From an uncultured archaeon (GTDB lineage Archaea; Iainarchaeota; Iainarchaeia; Iainarchaeales; 0-14-0-20-30-16): 7,476 nt of DNA. The position numbers and the translations under genes are program-made. Below the pieces are notes generated by a model, which did no database searches, had not been told where the DNA came from, and was given only the letters and a program-made list of their open reading frames with translations. Each line of letters opens with the position of its first letter. The first letter of the stretch is position 1. Below, piece by piece: positions 104 through 7,356 of this stretch. The DNA lies in the NCBI GenBank assembly GCA_964595665.1, contig CAZQQS010000024.1, forward strand, positions 1 to 7,476. The letters are read 5' to 3'.

Positions 104-234
104 AAAAGTTAAAAAGAGAAGAAATAGGTTAAAGATATTTTGAATAGTTTGAAGTTAATTTTCTTTCTGATGTTTTATTTCTGTAGATTAAACAAGAGGA
201 GAGAAAGATTATGAGGTAGTTTTCTGTGGTTTTT
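104..234 (+). repeat. 131-nt direct repeat, copy A (possible paralogous ncRNA gene or island-boundary repeat)
   Basis: Aligns with 4574-4704. The first 57 nt are identical except one T/A change (137 vs 4607). A 12-vs-9-nt variable patch follows. Identical blocks of 28, 22 and 11 nt come next, separated by a 3-nt (CTA) indel and a 1-nt indel. Both copies end in GTGG+T5-6. The last 2 nt overlap the stop codon of the 233-1267 ORF. Confidence 0.85.
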
Positions 235-1267
235 AATTATAATTAATAACTTTCTGTAGTAATTTCTTTGTTTCTTCATTATCTATGAAATCCATTAGAT
301 TAAACTGTTCATAGAATCTATCCATAGAATCATCAAATCTTTCTTTGATTTCGTTTATTTCAAAGACAGTGTTTGTAGATAATTCTTCTAAGTTTAGGTT
401 GTTTTCAATATAATATTGTTTCATGTCGTTTATACAATTGTGAATGGCGATATAATCCCAGAAAGCACTGTATGCCTCTACAAACAAATTTTGTAGTTTG
501 TAATCTTTGTTTTTATTATACATTTTTGTGAAATATATTACAAAATCATAAAAACTATTTATTATATTATAATTGTCTTTAAAGTAAGGTCTTAATTTAG
601 TTAATGTTCTAATATTCTTTTCTACGAAATTAAAATCTTTTGCATATATCTTTTCTAATATTTCATCGGCTAATTTATATAATGGATTTTCATCGTGTTG
701 TTCTTTCTTTAATGTTTTTGCAGATTTAAGTTCTGATTTTGATGCAATATTATCATTAATTATTGTATATATATCTGATAATTTATCTTGATAATAATTT
801 AAATTTACTTTATTTGAATAATCATTATCTGGATTATAAGCTAAGGGAGTAATTTGTCCATATTTATACCACATTACTGGAAGGCCTAATCCCAATTTAT
901 TATTTATTTTTACAACAATTTTTTGCATTTGAACTTTTCCGGGTTTTTGTTGAATTGTAGATAATAAATAATTTTCAACTATTGAAAATAAATTATAGAT
1001 TCTATCTTTATGTTCTTGTATAAGTTTAAAATTAAAATAAGTATCACTAATTTGATCTTGTCTGAGATTTAGAAATGCCTCTGATAGTGAATAATATTTT
1101 TCATCAGAAATCATTTGTTTTACAACAACTCCGTCATCAACTAAATTCAAGATTATTCTATTGACTGTTTCTTTTGGAATTTTTTGTCTCTCTGAAATTA
1201 ATTCTATTGTTGATTTAGAATTTTGAGTTAAATCTAAAACGATTTTACTAAAATTACCTACGCCCAT
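233..1267 (-). CDS. Winged-helix (MarR/ArsR-like) N-terminal domain protein with a large uncharacterised C-terminal region; possible Panacea/DUF4065-like middle segment
   Basis: 344-aa ORF. Residues about 15-60 (STIELISERQKIPKETVNRIILNLVDDGVVVKQ) have a typical wHTH pattern. KVQMQKIVV...MWYKYGQITPLAY loosely resembles the remembered Panacea pattern KLQKLLY...W.hGPVvPsvY. The rest is unrecognised. Confidence 0.6.
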   Translation of the reverse strand: MGVGNFSKIVLDLTQNSKSTIELISERQKIPKETVNRIILNLVDDGVVVKQMISDEKYYSLSEAFLNLRQDQISDTYFNFKLIQEHKDRIYNLFSIVENYLLSTIQQKPGKVQMQKIVVKINNKLGLGLPVMWYKYGQITPLAYNPDNDYSNKVNLNYYQDKLSDIYTIINDNIASKSELKSAKTLKKEQHDENPLYKLADEILEKIYAKDFNFVEKNIRTLTKLRPYFKDNYNIINSFYDFVIYFTKMYNKNKDYKLQNLFVEAYSAFWDYIAIHNCINDMKQYYIENNLNLEELSTNTVFEINEIKERFDDSMDRFYEQFNLMDFIDNEETKKLLQKVINYN

Positions 1268-1450: not shown

Positions 1451-2026
1451 ATGGTGGTCAATATCGATGAAGAAAAACAGCAAGTGCTTGATTATTTAGC
1501 GACGGGGTCTCAAATTGTCATGGATACTAATATGTACATCTATTATTACGAATATCAAATGAATATAGTTCCACAAAAACAATGCCAAGACAAAATAACT
1601 AAAGAATCTGTTATTATCATATTTAATTACTTTATAAAAAACAAGATCCCTATTTGTCTGCCTAAGATTATTTATGATGAAGTTAGAAAAGTTATGTCCA
1701 GAAAAAGGGCCGAAGCACTAGAAAAAGGCAAGGATCTATATCAATATAATGAAGACATACTTTATTGGGGATTAACACTGTGTAAGGATTTAGACGAAGA
1801 CTTTGAATCAAAAAACCGAAAACTTGCAAATGATATATTTTTTGATCAATCAAATGACTTTTTAATATACATTTACTGCAAAGAAAAAAATAAAGAAATG
1901 ATAATTACTGAAAACACAGATGATTTTGATGAATGTGAAATACGGTATGATGCACAAATTAATAAAAATCAAACAAAAATTAAAATTTTAAGTATCGCAC
2001 AATGCGCAGATATAATTAATTCGTAA
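1451..2026 (+). CDS. PIN-domain-like nuclease (VapC-like fold)
   Basis: 191-aa ORF. The acidic residues are spaced as in PIN domains: IVMDTNMYIYY (D25), IYDEV, SNDFLIYIY, and a C-terminal IITENTDDFDE that resembles the T-x-D-x-DF signature. Confidence 0.6.
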   Translation: MVVNIDEEKQQVLDYLATGSQIVMDTNMYIYYYEYQMNIVPQKQCQDKITKESVIIIFNYFIKNKIPICLPKIIYDEVRKVMSRKRAEALEKGKDLYQYNEDILYWGLTLCKDLDEDFESKNRKLANDIFFDQSNDFLIYIYCKEKNKEMIITENTDDFDECEIRYDAQINKNQTKIKILSIAQCADIINS

Positions 2027-2039
2027 AGAAGGCGAAATA

Positions 2040-2213
2040 ATGGGTGCGAAAGCAATAATTTTAGGGATTTTTGCAGTATTAATTGCATTAACTTTTGTTT
2101 TTTATTTTATAAACTCCGGAGATCCAAATATGCGTTCAGCAGGATGGACCGTATTAGGGGGGTTTATAGTTGCAGGAATTATAGGGACAGTAATTGCAGT
2201 TGCAAGAAGATGA
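2040..2213 (+). CDS. Small (57 aa) two-transmembrane-helix peptide, not in the supplied ORF track
   Basis: My translation is MGAKAIILGIFAVLIALTFVFYFINSGDPNMRSAGWTVLGGFIVAGIIGTVIAVARR*. There are two hydrophobic helices separated by a polar loop, and an RR C-terminus. The ATG is 13 nt after the PIN stop and is preceded by GAAGG. Local GC is higher than in the surrounding non-coding DNA. Confidence 0.55.
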   Translation: MGAKAIILGIFAVLIALTFVFYFINSGDPNMRSAGWTVLGGFIVAGIIGTVIAVARR

Positions 2214-2230
2214 TTATTCAATAATCATCT
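2208..2230. terminator. Perfect palindrome AGATGATTATT-C-AATAATCATCT followed by T6; candidate bidirectional terminator
   Basis: The 11-nt arms are exactly complementary. The hairpin contains the stop codons of both convergent ORFs (TGA 2211-2213 and TAA complement 2214-2216). A T-run lies at 2232-2237. Confidence 0.5.
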
Positions 2231-2600
2231 CTTTTTTCCCATCTTTAATTCCATTAAAGATGAGATTATACTCATTTCCAGTTAATTCTACAAGGTTTTG
2301 GTATTTATTGTCTTCCTTAAGTAAAGTAAACTTATCTTGTAATTGCTTAGCAATTAATCCTTTTTGAGATAATAATACTTGTTTTAATTTAACTTGATAA
2401 GGATATTTCTTTTTCCAATTATTAAATTCATCATTAACTAGTTTTTCTGCTTCAAATATTCCAAAGACTATTCCTTGTCCGTAATAAATTATTATATCTC
2501 CAGGAGTTATTAAATCTCTTTCATCTTCAGACATAAAACCACAATACTCTTTGGTTTTCATGTAAGATTCCCAAGAGTGGTTGATTAGGTAGTGTTTCAT
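2214..2600 (-). CDS. EVE/PUA-like (ASCH-superfamily, archaeal UPF0310-like) small protein
   Basis: 128-aa ORF. KHYLINHSWESY...GF...ITPGDIIIYYGQGIVFGIFEAE...YPYQVKLK matches the remembered EVE pattern (YWL..s..nW....g.wG....l..vkpGD.v.fY....ivGi.ev...w...v.v). The start is 2 nt after the upstream gene's stop. Confidence 0.5.
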   Translation of the reverse strand: MKHYLINHSWESYMKTKEYCGFMSEDERDLITPGDIIIYYGQGIVFGIFEAEKLVNDEFNNWKKKYPYQVKLKQVLLSQKGLIAKQLQDKFTLLKEDNKYQNLVELTGNEYNLIFNGIKDGKKEMIIE

Positions 2601-2602
2601 AT

Positions 2603-3853
2603 TTATTCTCTTTTTATTTCTTTCAATCTCTTCAAGAATATAGTCTGATAAGACTCACTAACTTTTAAAATCCATTTAAAATATTCTGGCCATTTGTCTT
2701 CTTTTTCCATATCTGCAGAAATTTGGTCACTAATTATTGCTCCTTTAAGTTCTGGTTTATCATCCCATTTTAAAGATTTGCCGTATTCTTTTTCAATAGC
2801 CTCTTTATCTTCATATATTGAATTGTATGCTTCTTTATTGAAAAAATATAAATCTGCAGCGATGATGTTTTTCTTACGATTAATTTTTATCGCAATTCCT
2901 GCATTTGAGTTGCCTATTGCTATTGAATAATATGAGGGAGTTGTTGGCTGTGCTCTACCCAATCTTAATTTACTATTTTGTTCTTTTGCATAAATAATAA
3001 ATTGATTAATAAATTCAATATTTTGTAATGCTGTAGTTGATAATTCTTTACTGTACATTGTATTCCTAATAACTTTGGCCCAATCGTTAGGTTTAGATAT
3101 AATTTGAAATTTTGGGGCGCAAGGACTATCTCCAATTTGCCAAAGTTCTATTTTAATTAAAAAGAAGTTTATATTTTCACTACTGTGTTCATTTAACCAA
3201 TCTATTGCTCTTTGATGTTCTTCTCTTATATCTTTTACTACCCAAATTATTATTTCTGCGTCATATCCTGAAGCGTAAGTAACTATTTTTCCTAAATGGT
3301 CATGATCTGTTGTTTCAAGTTGATTTTCAATAATTATTATTTTTCCTTTAGTAGATAATACTTTCTTAATGAAATTATCCTTTCCATTAAAATAAATGCC
3401 ATCTCCTTCTTGGTCTATAGTTTTCTTTTTGGTTTTTTTGTTAATATAAATAAATCTTTTAATTAGTCCTTTTTTTACTCCAAGACCTGTTTTCTTAAAG
3501 AATATTGTTTGTGTAGTAAACCCTAGTGTTGATTTTTTTGTTTCTTTTAGATATGCTATCATAGATTCAATTAGAAGCTTTCCGTAGTTTTTTCCTTTTT
3601 CAATAGCAATTACGCTACAAATTCCAAATATCTTGTATTTTTTGTTTAGATAGTTTATAGTTATTGGTTGTAGAACAAGAAAAGCTTTTATTTTTGATTT
3701 TTTCTTTACAAACATAACAACAGAACTAAGAGGATAGTCTTTTTTCCAGTTTTTTGTTGCTGTTTTTCCAAAATTAGTAATTCTGCCTCTATTCATTAGA
3801 GTCATTTCTTTTGTAGATAAATCTTTTAGTTTTTTATGTTCTGTAGTTATCAT
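2603..3853 (-). CDS. Fusion protein: N-terminal GNAT acetyltransferase + PD-(D/E)xK-nuclease remnant + DUF4268-like C-terminal domain
   Basis: 416-aa ORF. GNAT motif A is ICSVIAIEKGKNYGKLLIESMIAYL, followed by FFKKTGLG. A K-rich linker follows (INKKTKKKT). Next comes IIIIENQLETTDHDHLGKIVTYASGYDAEIIIWVV...AIDWLNE...NFFLIKIELWQIGDSPCAPKF...KPNDW, the conserved core I recall from nuclease-DUF4268 proteins. The tail is DUF4268-like (LKWDD...KGAIIS...DKWPEYFKW). Confidence 0.6.
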   Translation of the reverse strand: MITTEHKKLKDLSTKEMTLMNRGRITNFGKTATKNWKKDYPLSSVVMFVKKKSKIKAFLVLQPITINYLNKKYKIFGICSVIAIEKGKNYGKLLIESMIAYLKETKKSTLGFTTQTIFFKKTGLGVKKGLIKRFIYINKKTKKKTIDQEGDGIYFNGKDNFIKKVLSTKGKIIIIENQLETTDHDHLGKIVTYASGYDAEIIIWVVKDIREEHQRAIDWLNEHSSENINFFLIKIELWQIGDSPCAPKFQIISKPNDWAKVIRNTMYSKELSTTALQNIEFINQFIIYAKEQNSKLRLGRAQPTTPSYYSIAIGNSNAGIAIKINRKKNIIAADLYFFNKEAYNSIYEDKEAIEKEYGKSLKWDDKPELKGAIISDQISADMEKEDKWPEYFKWILKVSESYQTIFLKRLKEIKRE

Positions 3854-3866
3854 AATATCTTATGTT

Positions 3867-4370
3867 TTAAATCTTTTTCATAATCTTTGTCATAAACTTG
3901 CTTTTAAGTTTTTGATATAGATGCCCGTCATCTTTACAATGTTTAACTGCGTTTTTCTTAATTAGTATATATTCATCACAATCGGCTTTATTATTTATTA
4001 AATAATCTCTAAATTTAACTCTTTTATCAAAAGTCTTTTGACTTGTAGTAAGATGGATATGTATGAATCGTTCTCCATTTTTAGATTTATATTTCTTTAG
4101 TAGAAATACTCTTTCTTCATCATCATGTCTGCTTCTTAATTCATATTTGTGTTTAACAAGTAAATTTATTACTGGATTTAATTGTGATTTTTTTATTTTT
4201 ATAATAATATCAATAACCCCTTTGCCTCCAAGGCCTGGAACAGCAGTACTGCCAAAATGTTCTATTTTTGGGTTATATTTTTTTAGAACTGGAATTAATT
4301 TCTTTAATTCCAAAGAATATTGTTTTTTATAGTTTGGATTATATTCTTCAAATTTATATTTGCTTGCCAT
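3867..4370 (-). CDS. grpB: GrpB-family (UPF0157) nucleotidyltransferase-fold protein
   Basis: 167-aa ORF. IEHFGSTAVPGLGGKGVIDIII matches the GrpB signature (iEHiGSTsVPGl.aKpiIDI). It also has FIHIHL and FRDYLINNKADCDEYILIKK (FRDyL..hp....eY..lK). Confidence 0.75.
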   Translation of the reverse strand: MASKYKFEEYNPNYKKQYSLELKKLIPVLKKYNPKIEHFGSTAVPGLGGKGVIDIIIKIKKSQLNPVINLLVKHKYELRSRHDDEERVFLLKKYKSKNGERFIHIHLTTSQKTFDKRVKFRDYLINNKADCDEYILIKKNAVKHCKDDGHLYQKLKSKFMTKIMKKI

Positions 4371-4391
4371 ATTAAATATTATTATACATAA

Positions 4392-4401
4392 TATTTAAAT
4401 A
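4392..4401 (-). promoter_or_regulatory. TATA-like box TATTTAAATA for the GrpB operon
   Basis: Palindromic A/T box about 31 nt upstream of ATG 4370 on the minus strand. This is consistent with a leaderless or short-leader archaeal transcript. Confidence 0.35.
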
Positions 4402-4573
4402 CTTACTAAAAGTTATTAATTACCGGTTTTATGTTTTAAGTTAATTGGTTTTTTTGGAAAAATATAGAGTATTTTTTTGGTTTTTTGGTTATTTACAGAT
4501 AGATATAAGATATAATTAATATGAAAGTTTAGATTTTAGATAATTAACAAAACAGAGACTCCTCCCCCAAAAG

Positions 4574-4704
4574 AAAAGTTAAAAAGAGAAGAAATAGGTT
4601 AAAGATAATTTGAATAGTTTGAAGTTAATTATTTGGTAGTTTTATTTCTGTAGATTAAACAAGAGGACTAGAGAAAGATTATGAGGTAGTTTCTGTGGTT
4701 TTTT
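4574..4704 (+). repeat. 131-nt direct repeat, copy B
   Basis: See copy A (104-234). It lies in the divergent intergenic region between grpB (-) and the 4823 gene (+), upstream of that gene's own BRE/TATA. Confidence 0.85.
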
Positions 4705-4773
4705 GTAAAAACTCAACTTTTTCTCCAAAATTGCCAATTTCACAAAATTTGAGGGTTTTTTATTTGTTTTGTT

Positions 4774-4788
4774 GCGAAAATATATACT
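4774..4788 (+). promoter_or_regulatory. Archaeal-type BRE/TATA (GCGAAAA TATATACT) for the candidate nuclease gene
   Basis: 42 nt upstream of ATG 4823. It is nearly the same element as the one upstream of the PIN gene. Confidence 0.45.
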
Positions 4789-4822
4789 TAAAATAGATTC
4801 CTAAAAAAATTTGTGAAAATAA

Positions 4823-5395
4823 ATGAAAATTAAAGACGTAAAAACTGCATTTAAAGTTGCAGATGTTGTATTAGATAAAGAACATGAAAAACGCAAAATA
4901 AAATTTGTATTTCTCACAGAAATAATTGATGAGCACAATACTAAAATTAATAATAATATTTTAACCGATAATTCTGGAAGAATTTATATAATTGTATCTA
5001 ATGGGATAATAAAAAAAATTGGCGGCTCCCAATCTAAAGGTGGAATAAAATCTACTATGTCTTTTTATCAAGGGGGAATGCAAGGCGGACCAAGTATAAG
5101 AACTTATGGAGTACATATTTTAATAAAAGAAGAACTAGAACAAAATAATAACGTTGAAATTTATATGATTACTTCTGAAAAAACCATGATGAAAGTAAAA
5201 GGACTTTTTGATGAAAAAGAAATAGAAGTTGCTGCATTTAAAGACATGGAAGACCGATGTAAAACTGATTATAAAAATGTTGAAGGAAAGTATCCACCTT
5301 GGAATTTCCAAGAAAATGGTGAAATTTGGCGTGCTGATATTTTAAGAGGCCACAACCTACATGACAAACAAAGAAAAAGTTTGCAGTATAATTAA
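4823..5395 (+). CDS. Candidate type II restriction endonuclease with a GIY-YIG-like motif
   Basis: 190-aa ORF, convergent with a Dam-class methyltransferase and overlapping it by 4 nt. GRIYIIVSNGIIKKIGG (res 52-68) resembles GIY-x10-YIG with Lys replacing the second Tyr. I recall this variant from R.Hpy188I but cannot verify it here. SIRTYGVH lies downstream. No PD-(D/E)xK motif is evident. Confidence 0.45.
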   Translation: MKIKDVKTAFKVADVVLDKEHEKRKIKFVFLTEIIDEHNTKINNNILTDNSGRIYIIVSNGIIKKIGGSQSKGGIKSTMSFYQGGMQGGPSIRTYGVHILIKEELEQNNNVEIYMITSEKTMMKVKGLFDEKEIEVAAFKDMEDRCKTDYKNVEGKYPPWNFQENGEIWRADILRGHNLHDKQRKSLQYN

Positions 5396-6375
5396 ATTCT
5401 AGGTGGACAATAAATTACTATTTCGTGAGATCCTTTTATGTGATCTGCACCTTTTTCTATCCTATTTTTCCCTATTCTAGTTTCTCCTTGACCCATAGTA
5501 TATTGCCATGTAGGAAAACTTAATTTATATTCTTTATACCATTCTCTAATTGTTGGGCAGTCATTATAAGATACAATAAAGCCGCCTTTATGATTTTTAA
5601 GTAATTCTCTAAGTTTTTCGTGTTTAAATCCATTGTGATGTATTGGTATATTCCTCATAGGATATATCCCTTTAAACATTTTTGATCCTTCTCCAATATA
5701 ATATGGAGGATCGCAATAAAAGAAATCGTTAGGATATTTCTTGAAAACCTCTTCGAAATCCCCACACTCTACTTTTAGATTTTTTGGTTTGAAATCTCTA
5801 ACTTTTTCAATTGTGTGATTATATTTTTTATTATCTAAATAAATTTTAGATGTCCAACCTAAAAAACCGGGGCCATAGGACAAATTAAAATTAAAATAAT
5901 AGTATACTGCTAATGTTAATGAATCTAATTTTGTTTTTCCTTCCCAGTGTGCCTTCAATTTCAATCTAATATCAGTATATGTTTTTTCATCAGGATTTAT
6001 TTCTTTTAATCTATCATAAAGTTGTTTTGGTTTTTCTATTTGAAATTTCCAATAATTAACTAATATATCAAATATATCATAACCAATAACTTCTAAATCC
6101 AAATATTTACTTGCAGCAATTTCTACTGAACCTCCGCCAAAAAAAGGAGAAATTAATCTCGTAGTTGTGTTTGGTAATAATTCAATAATATACCCAACAG
6201 CTAAACTTTTGCCTCCTGCATATCTTATTGGAGATACTGGCACTCTCTTATAATAATTCATACTTTTTGGATTTTTACTTCTAATACTATCCAAAAAGTT
6301 TCTTTTCTTTATCTCAAATTCATTATTTTTATTTTTAAAAAGTAATTTTTGAGAATCATTTATTTTTGCAGCCAT
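5392..6375 (-). CDS. N6-adenine DNA methyltransferase, D12/Dam class (alpha group)
   Basis: 327-aa ORF. It has RYAGGKS (Dam-family N-terminal motif), FFGGGSVE (motif I, FxGxG) and FYCDPPYY (motif IV, DPPY, encoded at 5701-5712). Motif I precedes motif IV, which is the alpha-group order. Confidence 0.85.
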   Translation of the reverse strand: MAAKINDSQKLLFKNKNNEFEIKKRNFLDSIRSKNPKSMNYYKRVPVSPIRYAGGKSLAVGYIIELLPNTTTRLISPFFGGGSVEIAASKYLDLEVIGYDIFDILVNYWKFQIEKPKQLYDRLKEINPDEKTYTDIRLKLKAHWEGKTKLDSLTLAVYYYFNFNLSYGPGFLGWTSKIYLDNKKYNHTIEKVRDFKPKNLKVECGDFEEVFKKYPNDFFYCDPPYYIGEGSKMFKGIYPMRNIPIHHNGFKHEKLRELLKNHKGGFIVSYNDCPTIREWYKEYKLSFPTWQYTMGQGETRIGKNRIEKGADHIKGSHEIVIYCPPRI

Positions 6376-6403
6376 ATTATATCAATAAGATTGTGTTTTA
6401 ACT

Positions 6404-6415
6404 AATTTAAAAAGC
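6404..6415 (-). promoter_or_regulatory. TATA-like box (CTTTTTAAATTA on the minus strand) for the methyltransferase gene
   Basis: About 30-40 nt upstream of ATG 6375. There is no SD-like sequence, so the transcript is probably short-leader or leaderless. Confidence 0.35.
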
Positions 6416-6421
6416 TTTCTA

Positions 6422-6442
6422 GGGTACTTGTCCGATGCGAAA
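6422..6442. repeat. 21-nt motif GGGTACTTGTCCGATGCGAAA, copy 2 of 2
   Basis: 19/21 identity to 61-81. It lies between the Nudix stop (6445) and the methyltransferase TATA box. Confidence 0.6.
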
Positions 6443-6444
6443 AT

Positions 6445-6837
6445 TTATCTTTTTAATTCATTTACTACTTGTACATCTGCGGGTGCAAATTTATAATTAT
6501 CAATTTCAGCAAGATTTATCCATTTTATTTGTTCGTGTGAATTAACTTTTATTTCTCCTTTAAAAGAATCTACTAAAAAAACCATTAATTCAATTTCAAC
6601 ATCTGAGGTTATATAATTTGAAATACAAAATAAATTACCGACGTTTGCCTCTATATTTAATTCTTCAAATAACTCTCTTTTTAAGCAACCTTCCGGGGTT
6701 TCATTAAGTTCTATCTTCCCCCCTGGAAATTCCCACAATAATGAAAAAAAGTCTTCTTTTTTTCTTTGAGTAATCAGTATTTTCCCCTCTTTTTTAATTA
6801 TACCTGCGATTACTAGTATTTTTTTCAAAATTCTCAC
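6445..6837 (-). CDS. Nudix hydrolase, MutT/NudG-like
   Basis: 130-aa ORF. LWEFPGGKIELNETPEGCLKRELFEELN fits the Nudix box Gx5Ex7REUxEExGU, with the last G replaced by N. The ORF starts at GTG (CAC at 6835-6837), 6 nt after the upstream Nudix stop. Confidence 0.8.
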   Translation of the reverse strand: MRILKKILVIAGIIKKEGKILITQRKKEDFFSLLWEFPGGKIELNETPEGCLKRELFEELNIEANVGNLFCISNYITSDVEIELMVFLVDSFKGEIKVNSHEQIKWINLAEIDNYKFAPADVQVVNELKR

Positions 6838-6843
6838 AATATT

Positions 6844-7356
6844 TTACTTAATGTTATCAATAAAATGTTTTATTGCTTCTCTAAAGGTTGGTGCAAAGTC
6901 TTCTGGGTTTTTGTTTATCTCTTCTTTTATTTCGTCTAAACTGAAATCTTTGAAGTATTGAATCTCTTCAGGATTTGGTTTTAATATGTTTGGATTTATT
7001 TCATCTTTAGTGGTATATACTTTGAAAAAACTTTTATATTCTGGAGTATCATAAAAGAAAGAACAAACTTCTTGAAGTTCTAGTTGTGTTCCTACTTCTT
7101 CAATACTTTCTCTTATTGCACCATCTAGATAAGATTCATTTGCAAGAATCTTCCCTCCAATACAACAAATCCAAGTATTTGGAAATGGTTGTTGCGTTTT
7201 TGACCTTTTTGAGAGAATAAATCTATTGTTTGCAGTTCTTGGGATTACTAAAGAACATTTATGAAAAAACATTCTTGTTTTAAGTTCTGATTTTGGATGA
7301 ACAGCTATAATATTTCCATTAATGTCTAGCTCTTCAATAAATTCTTCAGAAATCAT
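6844..7356 (-). CDS. Nudix hydrolase (second, divergent paralogue)
   Basis: 170-aa ORF. GGKILANESYLDGAIRESIEEVG fits the Nudix box exactly (G-x5-E-x7-RE-x2-EE-x-G). Confidence 0.8.
   Translation of the reverse strand: MISEEFIEELDINGNIIAVHPKSELKTRMFFHKCSLVIPRTANNRFILSKRSKTQQPFPNTWICCIGGKILANESYLDGAIRESIEEVGTQLELQEVCSFFYDTPEYKSFFKVYTTKDEINPNILKPNPEEIQYFKDFSLDEIKEEINKNPEDFAPTFREAIKHFIDNIK

Follow-up and report, generated by a model that had tools for sequence, protein, structure and literature searches.

A recent GNAT/DUF4268 gene chimera at a probable seam between two unrelated modules in a defense island of a DPANN archaeon

Three closely packed genes of an uncultured Iainarchaeota archaeon raise the question of whether a nucleotidyltransferase (NTase)-fold protein, an acetyltransferase fused to part of a nuclease, and an EVE-like reader form an undescribed, dedicated system. 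The window, i.e., the whole stretch of DNA that was analyzed, comprises 7,476 nt. On its minus strand, ORFs for a 167-aa GrpB protein (positions 3867 to 4370), a 416-aa GNAT/DUF4268 protein (2603 to 3853) and a 128-aa EVE-like protein (2214 to 2600) are separated by gaps of 13 nt and 2 nt, as a previous inspection of the letters without database searches (the sequence-only reading) had claimed. In line with that reading, a motif scan of positions 2214 to 4800 returned one minus-strand match to TTTAWATA, the TATA-like box TTTAAATA at 4392 to 4399 (positions −29 to −22 relative to the GrpB start codon). Across the window, the motif shows no enrichment, with 5 occurrences versus 8 expected. Judged by its position, the box is a putative promoter element; its spacing to the ATG fits a leaderless archaeal transcript, and the GrpB gene, the 416-aa ORF and the 128-aa gene may be cotranscribed.

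At the other end of the array, a palindrome with 11-nt arms lies at 2208 to 2230 (no strand assigned) and covers two stop codons, those of the 128-aa gene and a convergent 57-aa ORF. Its hairpin has a dG of −12.7 kcal/mol (z of −3.6), and none of 200 shuffled sequences folded as well. It had been read as a perfect palindromic terminator. The palindrome is indeed perfect (100% complementary arms), but since no U-tract follows it and since it is absent from homologous loci, which served as the conservation test, the terminator role is unproven. A scan with sigma-70 and intrinsic-terminator models gave results at chance level; these models are bacterial and uninformative for an archaeon.

The 416-aa ORF can be shown to be a chimera of recent origin, combining two genes that are conserved independently of each other. 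Its residues 1 to 169 (3348 to 3853, minus strand) are homologous to free-standing GNATs of 177 to 189 aa, and its residues 170 to 416 are 100% identical to residues 66 to 312 of an intact, 312-aa DUF4268 protein (P0001). The latter part starts with a NucS-like PD-(D/E)xK nuclease remnant of a PDC-S11-type gene (3092 to 3346, minus strand; residues 66 to 150 of P0001) and ends with the DUF4268 domain and the stop codon (2603 to 3037, minus strand). Among the matches listed, all DUF4268 homologues are ~310 aa long and unfused, and they cover at most 63% of the 416-aa ORF. The rearrangement junction was located by blastn breakpoints at 3330 to 3350 (minus strand), and the breakpoint 3347/3348 falls in the shared GGAAAAATAAT (GK[IV]II at the protein level). 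When the DNAs were placed side by side, intact GNATs read STKGKVII... and intact DUF4268 genes read ENTGKIII... at this site; the microhomology AAA GGA AAA ATA ATA ATT encodes K-G-K-I-I-I. The reading frame is open across the joint, with 416 intact codons in the window. A search of the window showed that the missing 65 nuclease residues are not encoded elsewhere in it.

Such a structure could arise in the assembler, by mis-joining of GNAT and DUF4268 sequences at a short repeat. The joint indeed lies in low-complexity, A/T-rich microhomology, and a sister sample contains an intact DUF4268 gene with different upstream sequence. However, the identical junction is present in L005, a Logan assembly made independently from another sequencing run, which is 99.5% identical to the window and differs from it by 8 SNPs and one indel. 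Furthermore, the shared stretch is shorter than ~20 nt and thus presumably shorter than the usual k-mers of such assemblers. We therefore regard an assembly artefact as extremely improbable.

The fusion junction was detected only in the window contig and in L005. It is carried by two populations whose GrpB-GNAT parts are 0.8% divergent, and thus the fusion was not instantly lethal or purged. L005 has one additional A in a run within the GNAT part (A8 instead of A7 at 3533 to 3539, minus strand), by which the chimera is frameshifted to a 119-aa product. The affected site is a homopolymer, and the frameshift may stem from an error of the assembly. In the sister contig L001, an intact nuclease gene is followed by the same 128-aa gene as in the window. 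All differences between the DUF4268 part and L001 are synonymous, a pattern that either persisting constraint or a very recent origin could account for. For the gene that precedes the intact nuclease in L001, none of the loci retrieved contained a match, and the ancestral arrangement could not be traced.

Profile searches and models agreed with the two domain names given to the second half of the chimera. DUF4268 was recognized by PF14088 at residues 280 to 407 with a score above the gathering cutoff (E of 2.9e-13; 50.5 bits versus 27). The term nuclease remnant was also apt: the intact family combines a NucS/EndoMS-like PD-(D/E)xK domain with DUF4268, and the window ORF lacks its first 65 residues. 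In the model of an intact relative, the former domain resembles NucS/EndoMS (2vld and 5gke), and DUF4268 is a complete, independent domain with a YbjN/secretion-chaperone-like fold, matching ExsC/YbjN/AmyR. The PADLOC model PDC-S11 (~315 positions) matched P0001 end to end (profile positions 5 to 314; E of 7e-110), whereas it matched the chimera at positions 67 to 314 only (E of 4e-78), so that the end-to-end test failed for the latter. Residues D57 and E61, which are invariant in 35 relatives of the PDC-S11-type nuclease, are in the missing part. The remnant keeps E72, N73, Q74, E76, H80, H82 and K85, but without helix 1, strands 1 and 2 of the modelled core, and D57/E61 it did not pass as a complete PD-(D/E)xK core.

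Since the removed 65 residues include the two invariant acidic residues, the nuclease in the chimera is predicted to be dead. The parent nuclease was probably of the modification-dependent MdgA kind; MdgA has the architecture nuclease plus DUF4268, and its E77A mutant has been described. PDC-S11 is a candidate single-gene phage defense. The chimera resembles it in residues 170 to 416, which match the PDC-S11 models, and in its defense-island setting, as relatives adjoin Type I restriction-modification (R-M) or Type II-like enzymes; one Type I R-M operon has a homologue with 57% identity at its tail. It differs in having a GNAT in place of the first 65 residues and is presumably an inactive derivative.

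The upstream gene leads to a different set of relatives. The 167-aa protein was matched by PF04229 over residues 8 to 166 (E of 7e-31; 108 bits versus a gathering cutoff of 25.5) and by PDB entry 2nrk (E of 8e-12), and FGSTAVPGLGGKGVIDI contains a G-S...D motif of the NTase type. This confirmed the GrpB NTase-fold assignment. To our knowledge, the GrpB family has no established function. GrpB of the window is 84.5% identical to GrpB of locus L025, where it lies directly upstream of an intact GNAT, and 41% identical to the GrpB domain of P0216, which is a GrpB::GNAT fusion (PF04229; E of 9e-32).

The GNAT part of the window ORF had no Pfam GNAT match at E of ≤0.1. Support for this assignment came through its family of ~180-aa proteins, members of which pass PF00583 (P0135, 26.7 bits; P0206, 26.9 bits; P0212, 37.7 bits; cutoff, 20.7) and the profile of which matches GCN5 (E of 1e-3) and other acetyltransferases in the PDB. 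Compared with the family, the window GNAT is ~10 residues short at its end, and a C-terminal H-W is among the residues lost. In all of the 150 best of 342 profile matches, obtained from 1.84 billion representatives, the GNAT is at the C terminus, without any C-terminal extension. Moreover, the window GNAT departs from the family at three conserved positions (F47M, G89N and P139K). One of them, G89, which 23 of 25 relatives share, belongs to the acetyl-coenzyme A pyrophosphate-binding motif (Q/R-x-x-G-x-G/A), which reads K-G-K-G-Y-G in the family and K-G-K-N-Y-G in the window.

Relatives of the window GNAT are fused to GrpB, to a Pol-beta-type NTase, to an AAA_33 P-loop kinase or to a second GNAT. 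Solid NTase fusions are limited to P0206 (Pol-beta) and P0216 (GrpB). The N-terminal domain of L041-type fusions was tentatively assigned as an NTase on the basis of weak NTP_transf_5 matches of P0203 and P0205 and of the G-S...D-I-D motif; it had no PDB match by sequence. An N-terminal extension in L031, which by eye had seemed HEPN-like, found no support in Pfam, and this reading was dropped. Direct adjacency of GrpB and GNAT was observed in 1 of the 34 GNAT loci with enough upstream sequence, in addition to the one fusion protein. Together, these sequence relationships support the view that GrpB and the ~180-aa GNAT are a functionally linked enzyme pair.

Bifunctional group-transfer enzymes that modify antibiotics exist, for example, ANT/AAC and AAC/APH fusions. 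The window GNAT family resembles them in its recurrent fusion or adjacency to an NTase-fold domain, a P-loop kinase or a second GNAT. In contrast, the window proteins have no sequence relation to characterized resistance enzymes in NCBIfam and the PDB, and the host is a DPANN archaeon. We infer that GrpB and GNAT are group-transfer enzymes (nucleotidylyl and acetyl) with a common substrate of the small-molecule or xenobiotic type, the choice of substrate being wholly conjectural. A small-molecule modification cassette had been offered as an alternative for all three genes; given the fusions to GrpB, NTases, a kinase and GNAT, it gains support for the GrpB-GNAT pair only. The window GrpB also matches the GrpB part of PRK03333, a GrpB domain fused to dephospho-CoA kinase, but it stands alone and is partnered by GNAT instead of CoaE.

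The 128-aa protein had no match in Pfam, the EVE HMM PF01878 included, and gave weak matches to UPF0310 profiles (NCBIfam PRK00809, E of 2e-3; PH1033, E of 0.024; MJECL36). Its AF2 model (pLDDT of 87.8) was compared by Foldseek. The model matched MJECL36 (2p5d; E of 1.4e-6; TM of 0.69) as well as 6yex, 1zce, 2gbs, YTH and THYN1, all with a probability of 1.0; the structural matches include the EVE domain of VcaM4I and Atu2648. Thus, the EVE-like assignment holds at the level of the fold, with EVE and YTH structures being the closest. Residues W10, W62, Y19, Y39, Y66, F46 and F49 are invariant in the family. According to the model, the protein is a stand-alone, EVE/YTH-like candidate reader of modified bases from the PUA superfamily.

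Relatives of this reader were found only in Iainarchaeota-type MAGs, and thus the family was observed in DPANN archaea only. In 13 of its 16 contexts, the gene accompanies a Type I R-M operon, with the reader of the relatives being located at the operon tail, and in one context a DpnI-like nuclease gene is directly downstream. Stand-alone EVE proteins beside archaeal Type I R-M have already been described (Bell et al. 2020, PMC7641849), and the 128-aa family agrees with them in its small PUA-like EVE/YTH fold and its contexts. It differs in that its sequence is too divergent for the Pfam EVE model and in that the window gene follows a PDC-S11 remnant. The window contains no hsd gene, so the adjacency to Type I R-M fails here. 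No ASCH partner was found in the window or in the reader contexts.

Could the chimera nevertheless be a newborn functional protein? In such a case, GNAT would have captured DUF4268, for which recognition of modified DNA is proposed. With the EVE-like reader as its partner and GrpB as an auxiliary NTase, it would then acetylate or mark modified nucleic acid in the manner of GNAT-EVE and PIN-GNAT-EVE proteins. The latter are known from predicted toxin-antitoxin or defense modules (PMC7641849), and in the window, likewise in a defense context, 2.5 kb suffice to encompass a GNAT, the EVE-like domain and a PIN-like protein of weak support. Furthermore, the open frame, the complete DUF4268 domain that models independently, and the presence in two populations are in line with function. 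However, the window genes are separate and show no conserved linkage, and the partners of this GNAT family are GrpB, NTases and a kinase; in 50 GNAT loci and 16 reader contexts, GNAT and reader families are never neighbors. The fusion is confined to near-identical strains, and its L005 copy is frameshifted. In the chimera, the free C-terminal H-W that is constant in the GNAT family is lost, a single beta-strand (GKIIII) must serve both half-domains, and the half-nuclease is unlikely to fold. Finally, the GNAT deviates at the three conserved positions. We consider a functional fusion improbable; if true, it would be an architecture caught at birth, marking or disarming modified viral nucleic acid.

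The survey of gene neighborhoods answered whether the trio is a unit. The search for the trio covered 50 GNAT loci, 16 reader contexts and over 3,700 DUF4268 homologues and returned no instance other than those of the window and L005. None of the 50 GNAT loci contained a DUF4268 or 128-aa gene, and GrpB, GNAT and DUF4268 were absent from all 16 distinct reader contexts (loci L006 to L023). The tight spacing, the single upstream TATA-like box and the defense-type neighbors (matches to a Type II methyltransferase and PDC-S11) would suit a dedicated defense or toxin system of NTase, GNAT-nuclease and EVE reader. Against it stand the lack of synteny beyond contigs that are at least 99.5% identical, the origin of the middle gene as a recent chimera and the incomplete nuclease active site. 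A dedicated three-gene system is therefore very improbable, and the corresponding proposal of the sequence-only reading was not borne out. The trio is a strain-specific splice of an enzyme pair onto a broken nuclease gene and its reader neighbor, the result of ordinary defense-island shuffling, and thus not a new three-gene system.

The suggested defense-island setting is supported. The R-M pair proposed for one flank is only half supported: the Dam-like methyltransferase is a solid call, but its 190-aa neighbor had no family match. The supposed PIN nuclease on the other side gave a weak match below the cutoff (PIN_12; E of 0.009).

Two direct repeats of ~135 nt (plus strand) are present, copy A at 104 to 237, directly after the stop codon of a 344-aa winged-helix (wHTH) gene, and copy B at 4574 to 4706, ~200 nt upstream of GrpB. 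Since they bracket 4.3 kb with exactly six genes, from the wHTH gene to GrpB, and since a related copy directly follows the intact GNAT in L025, the block could be a mobile or integrated cassette with the three genes as cargo and the repeats as att-like ends. However, no integrase, transposase or viral-contig match was found in its support, and the repeat itself matched no tRNA, Rfam family, structured RNA or viral att site among those tested. Moreover, the genes that follow the reader (for a small membrane protein, the PIN-like protein and the wHTH protein) are in synteny with L006, where Type I R-M is upstream instead. We consider a cassette possible but unlikely; it is compatible with a seam between two modules and does not replace that explanation.

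We hold it probable that the three-gene stretch is such a seam, where a rearrangement joined two unrelated modules in a variable defense island of a low-GC DPANN archaeon and left the chimera as a by-product. Module 1 would be GrpB with the ~180-aa GNAT, and module 2 a PDC-S11-type single-gene defense nuclease followed by the stand-alone EVE-like reader. A microhomology-mediated deletion or illegitimate recombination would have joined GNAT codon 169 in frame to nuclease codon 66, removing the C-terminal strand of GNAT and the first 65 residues of the nuclease. The chimera would be young and is probably decaying, and the EVE-like gene may now be read from the putative GrpB promoter.

In summary, the eye-catching combination of NTase, GNAT-nuclease and EVE reader is an accident of shuffling, and a false lead is removed. 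The locus provides a dated case of putatively microhomology-mediated, in-frame gene fusion in DPANN archaea, and intact and fused alleles coexist in nature, a natural experiment on the birth or decay of domain architectures. Rosetta-stone evidence ties the GrpB family, which has no function assigned, to one particular family of GNATs and provides a testable partner for GrpB; GrpB and GNAT may make up a two-enzyme module of DPANN archaea that has not been described before. Furthermore, in DPANN genomes the divergent, Pfam-invisible EVE-like family is a marker of loci for Type I R-M and other nucleases. It extends the published association of EVE proteins with Type I R-M and could help to flag defense islands in these genomes, which are poorly annotated.

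By ORF scan, the minus strand encodes a GrpB protein (167 aa; 3867-4370), a 416-aa protein (2603-3853), and an EVE-like 128-aa protein (2214-2600), with gaps of 13 nt and 2 nt between the genes and one TATA-like box, TTTAAATA, upstream (4392-4399, minus strand; -29 to -22 relative to the GrpB ATG). This agrees with the tight layout recognized in the sequence-only reading. The box is the sole TTTAWATA on the minus strand across the three genes, and its spacing would be compatible with a leaderless archaeal promoter; in the window (G+C, ~27%), the motif is not enriched (5 observed versus 8 expected). The trio indeed ends at a perfect palindrome (2208-2230; arms of 11 nt), in which both the 128-aa gene and a convergent ORF for a 57-aa two-helix membrane-like protein (2040-2213, plus strand) have their stop codons; the hairpin it can form has a dG of -12.7 kcal/mol (z, -3.6). 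However, its designation as a terminator is unproven, since no U-tract follows and homologous loci lack the palindrome.

The middle gene proved to be composite. Pfam placed DUF4268 at residues 280-407, and among more than 3,700 homologues, the best 120 are all ~310 aa long and span just 57-63% of the ORF. The top match, the intact 312-aa DUF4268 protein P0001, aligns its residues 66-312 to ORF residues 170-416 with 100% identity (247 aa). In PADLOC, P0001 matches the candidate single-gene defence system PDC-S11 end to end (E, 7e-110), and the 416-aa ORF reaches profile positions 67-314 only. The P0001 model (pLDDT, 87.3) has two domains: a predicted N-terminal PD-(D/E)xK domain nearest to NucS/EndoMS (2vld, 5gke) and a C-terminal DUF4268 domain with a probable YbjN/secretion-chaperone-like fold. 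In 35 relatives, D57, E61, E72, N73, Q74, E76, H80, H82, and K85 are invariant. The 416-aa ORF lacks P0001 residues 1-65 and with them helix 1, strands 1-2, D57, and E61; the missing 65 residues are encoded nowhere else in the window.

Residues 1-169 belong to a separate family of free-standing proteins of 177-189 aa, several of which pass PF00583 (GNAT); their C-terminus reads ...STK(G/S)K(V)II-P-x-x-H-W. Only the last ~10 residues, including the terminal strand, are absent from the window copy. Three positions conserved in the family differ in it (F47M, P139K, and G89N, the last in the acetyl-CoA loop), which hints at relaxed constraint. When 1.84 billion representative proteins were searched with the family profile, the GNAT domain was C-terminal, with no C-terminal fusion or extension, in the best 150 of 342 matches. 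Judged from these alignments, the 416-aa ORF is a recent chimera of two families. The domains proposed earlier for the fusion (GNAT, a nuclease remnant, and DUF4268) were supported. The fusion is restricted to strains at least 99.5% identical, one of them frameshifted. An internal ATG (3061-3059; Met265) lies in the disordered linker just ahead of DUF4268, and from the equivalent ATG in the related contig L005 (1266-1721), gene calling yields a 151-aa product with DUF4268 only. A stand-alone DUF4268 domain could still be made from this start.

The near-identical contig L001 (Logan, SRR11845627), which carries an intact nuclease gene, matches the window at 99.5% DNA identity between 3347 and 2509; beyond 3347, its upstream sequence is unrelated. 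At the joint, intact GNAT genes read ...TCT ACT AAA GGG AAA GTA ATT ATA... and intact nuclease genes ...AAC ACA GGA AAA ATA ATT ATT ATT GAA...; the joint thus falls inside a patch common to both parent families, a 10-17-nt microhomology encoding (T)-K/T-G-K-[IV]-I-I. The simplest reading would be an in-frame microhomology-mediated deletion or illegitimate recombination. L005 (SRR27710297), from another run and another assembler, aligns collinearly with 1,785 nt of the window (4322-2539) and has the same joint, with 8 SNPs and 1 indel. This argues strongly against an assembly artefact, which we regard as a very improbable account of the joint. The indel (A8 for A7 at 3533-3539) causes a frameshift that reduces the chimera product to 119 aa. 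All eight SNPs are in the GrpB-GNAT part (3348-4322; five nonsynonymous, three synonymous), whereas the nuclease and reader part, ~810 nt long, has none (by our own calculation, P ~0.008 for such a division). Furthermore, the four L001 differences are all synonymous and within 67 nt of the joint (3281-3335), followed by 770 identical bases (2509-3280). This clustering suggests ongoing recombination or gene conversion among strains, homogenizing the right-hand segment.

The assignment of GrpB, an NTase-fold protein, is solid by profile comparison (PF04229, E 7e-31; PDB 2nrk, E 8e-12). Among 50 metagenome GNAT loci, GrpB is directly upstream of GNAT in L025 only, where an 84.5%-identical GrpB precedes an intact 179-aa GNAT and then unrelated genes; in L073, a 41%-identical GrpB lies 2.3 kb from a GNAT fragment. 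The few long GNAT-family members carry the added domain N-terminally in every case. In P0216, this domain is GrpB (PF04229, E 9e-32) and shares 41% identity with the GrpB of the window (E, 4e-36). Others are a Pol-beta-type nucleotidyltransferase (P0206), an NTP_transf_5-like domain with a G-S...D-I-D motif (P0203, P0205, and L041/L043 proteins; weak matches), an AAA_33 P-loop kinase (P0316), and a second GNAT (P0212 and L050). An unassigned 145-aa domain also recurs (the long set includes L031). Genes paired in one lineage and fused in another classically indicate a functional link, and partners of this kind (nucleotidyltransferase, kinase, and acetyltransferase) are seen in bifunctional enzymes that transfer groups onto small molecules, e.g., aminoglycosides. 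GrpB and GNAT therefore appear to be in a real, Rosetta-stone type of relation. Because of this partner set, the alternative of a small-molecule modification cassette gains support for GrpB and GNAT, with a substrate suggested by analogy, but not for the third gene; NCBIfam and PDB profile searches gave no resistance-enzyme family match.

The 128-aa protein has no Pfam match. Its AlphaFold model (28 homologues in the input; pLDDT, 87.8; pTM, 0.81) matches EVE/YTH-type PUA-like domains, namely those of MJECL36 (E, 1.4e-6; TM, 0.69), VcaM4I (a modification-dependent endonuclease, matched in its EVE domain), Atu2648, Rpa0253, THYN1, and many YTH proteins. Together with weak profile matches to PRK00809 and PH1033/MJECL36 (UPF0310), the model supports the earlier EVE-like call at fold level. 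The family was found in DPANN archaea only (Iainarchaeota, 'Ca. Forterrea', and uncultured archaea). A Type I R-M operon is present in 13 of its 16 distinct contexts (L006, L007, L008-10, L011, L012, L013, L015, L016, L017, L019, L020, L021, and L022), the gene usually lying directly 3' of hsdR or beside hsdM/S. The same association has been published for stand-alone archaeal EVE proteins (PMC7641849). In L011, downstream of hsdM-S-R, a 144-aa DpnI-like (m6A-dependent) nuclease (6384-6818) directly follows the reader homologue, an arrangement reminiscent of a modification-dependent restriction enzyme in split form. The reader homologue of L018 is directly preceded by a 423-aa protein (666-1937) whose QueC-like region could point to 7-deazaguanine-type DNA modification.

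None of the 16 contexts contains GrpB, this GNAT, or DUF4268, and none of the 50 GNAT loci has a DUF4268 or 128-aa gene nearby. A dedicated three-gene system, for which the tight spacing would speak, thus found no counterpart in either survey, and we give it hardly any credence. PDC-S11 relatives, too, occur in islands of this type, where they follow hsdR (L075) or a ~280-300-aa protein, by eye a candidate restriction enzyme (L002 and L074). Nuclease-then-reader adjacency occurs in L001 and L005 only and is absent from L074 (65% identity).

Downstream of the reader, the membrane protein, a PIN-like protein (1451-2026, plus strand), and a 344-aa winged-helix protein (233-1267, minus strand) form a block shared with L006 (10424-12214), where the counterparts are a membrane protein of 89 aa, a protein of 181 aa with 33% identity over 54 aa, and a wHTH protein with 33% identity. 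The neighbour previously called a PIN nuclease is a weak match (PIN_12, E 0.009). In L006, Type I R-M occupies the place upstream of the reader, which therefore behaves as a variable defence-island slot. Of the R-M pair proposed beside the trio, the Dam-like Type II methyltransferase (5392-6375, minus strand; PADLOC MTase_II, E 1.6e-119) was confirmed; the convergent 190-aa ORF (4823-5395, plus strand; 4-nt overlap) matched nothing in Pfam, NCBIfam, PADLOC, or PDB and may be, though unproven, the cognate restriction enzyme. Two tandem minus-strand NUDIX hydrolase genes follow (6445-6837 and 6844-7356), one MutT-like (TIGR00586, 104.5 bits versus a cutoff of 97.9) and one resembling methanogen-type Nudix or YfcD. 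A ~135-nt direct repeat (104-237 and 4574-4706; blocks of 88-100% identity) encloses 4.3 kb with all six genes from wHTH to GrpB, and a related copy is found 3' of the intact GNAT in L025 (1213-1277). The repeat matches no tRNA, Rfam family, or viral sequence, and its RNA fold does not beat shuffled sequences; candidate roles are the edge of a cassette, an att-like site, or a substrate for recombination. Just outside the first copy, near the left end of this 27%-GC contig, lies an unusually G-rich stretch, AAAAGGGGGGTGTTTTCGGGGGGG (40-65).

In summary, two modules were joined by an in-frame rearrangement that left the nuclease part without invariant core elements and the GNAT without its terminal strand. 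A newborn functional fusion, analogous to GNAT-EVE, would fit the preserved frame; with these losses and the frameshifted strain, we consider it unlikely. The PDC-S11 nuclease would be inactive after loss of its core elements, and the one strand GKIIII would be unable to complete both half-domains. The EVE-like gene would normally provide a nuclease next to it with an accessory reader and would now be transcribed from the GrpB promoter. We favor, with good confidence, a mosaic or relic origin of the trio. Its parts are all of known kinds (GrpB, GNAT, PDC-S11/DUF4268, and a stand-alone EVE protein near restriction systems), and it is not real as a system. Modestly new are a documented natural fusion and decay event, the probable Rosetta-stone link between GrpB and GNAT, and a divergent EVE-like family of DPANN archaea.
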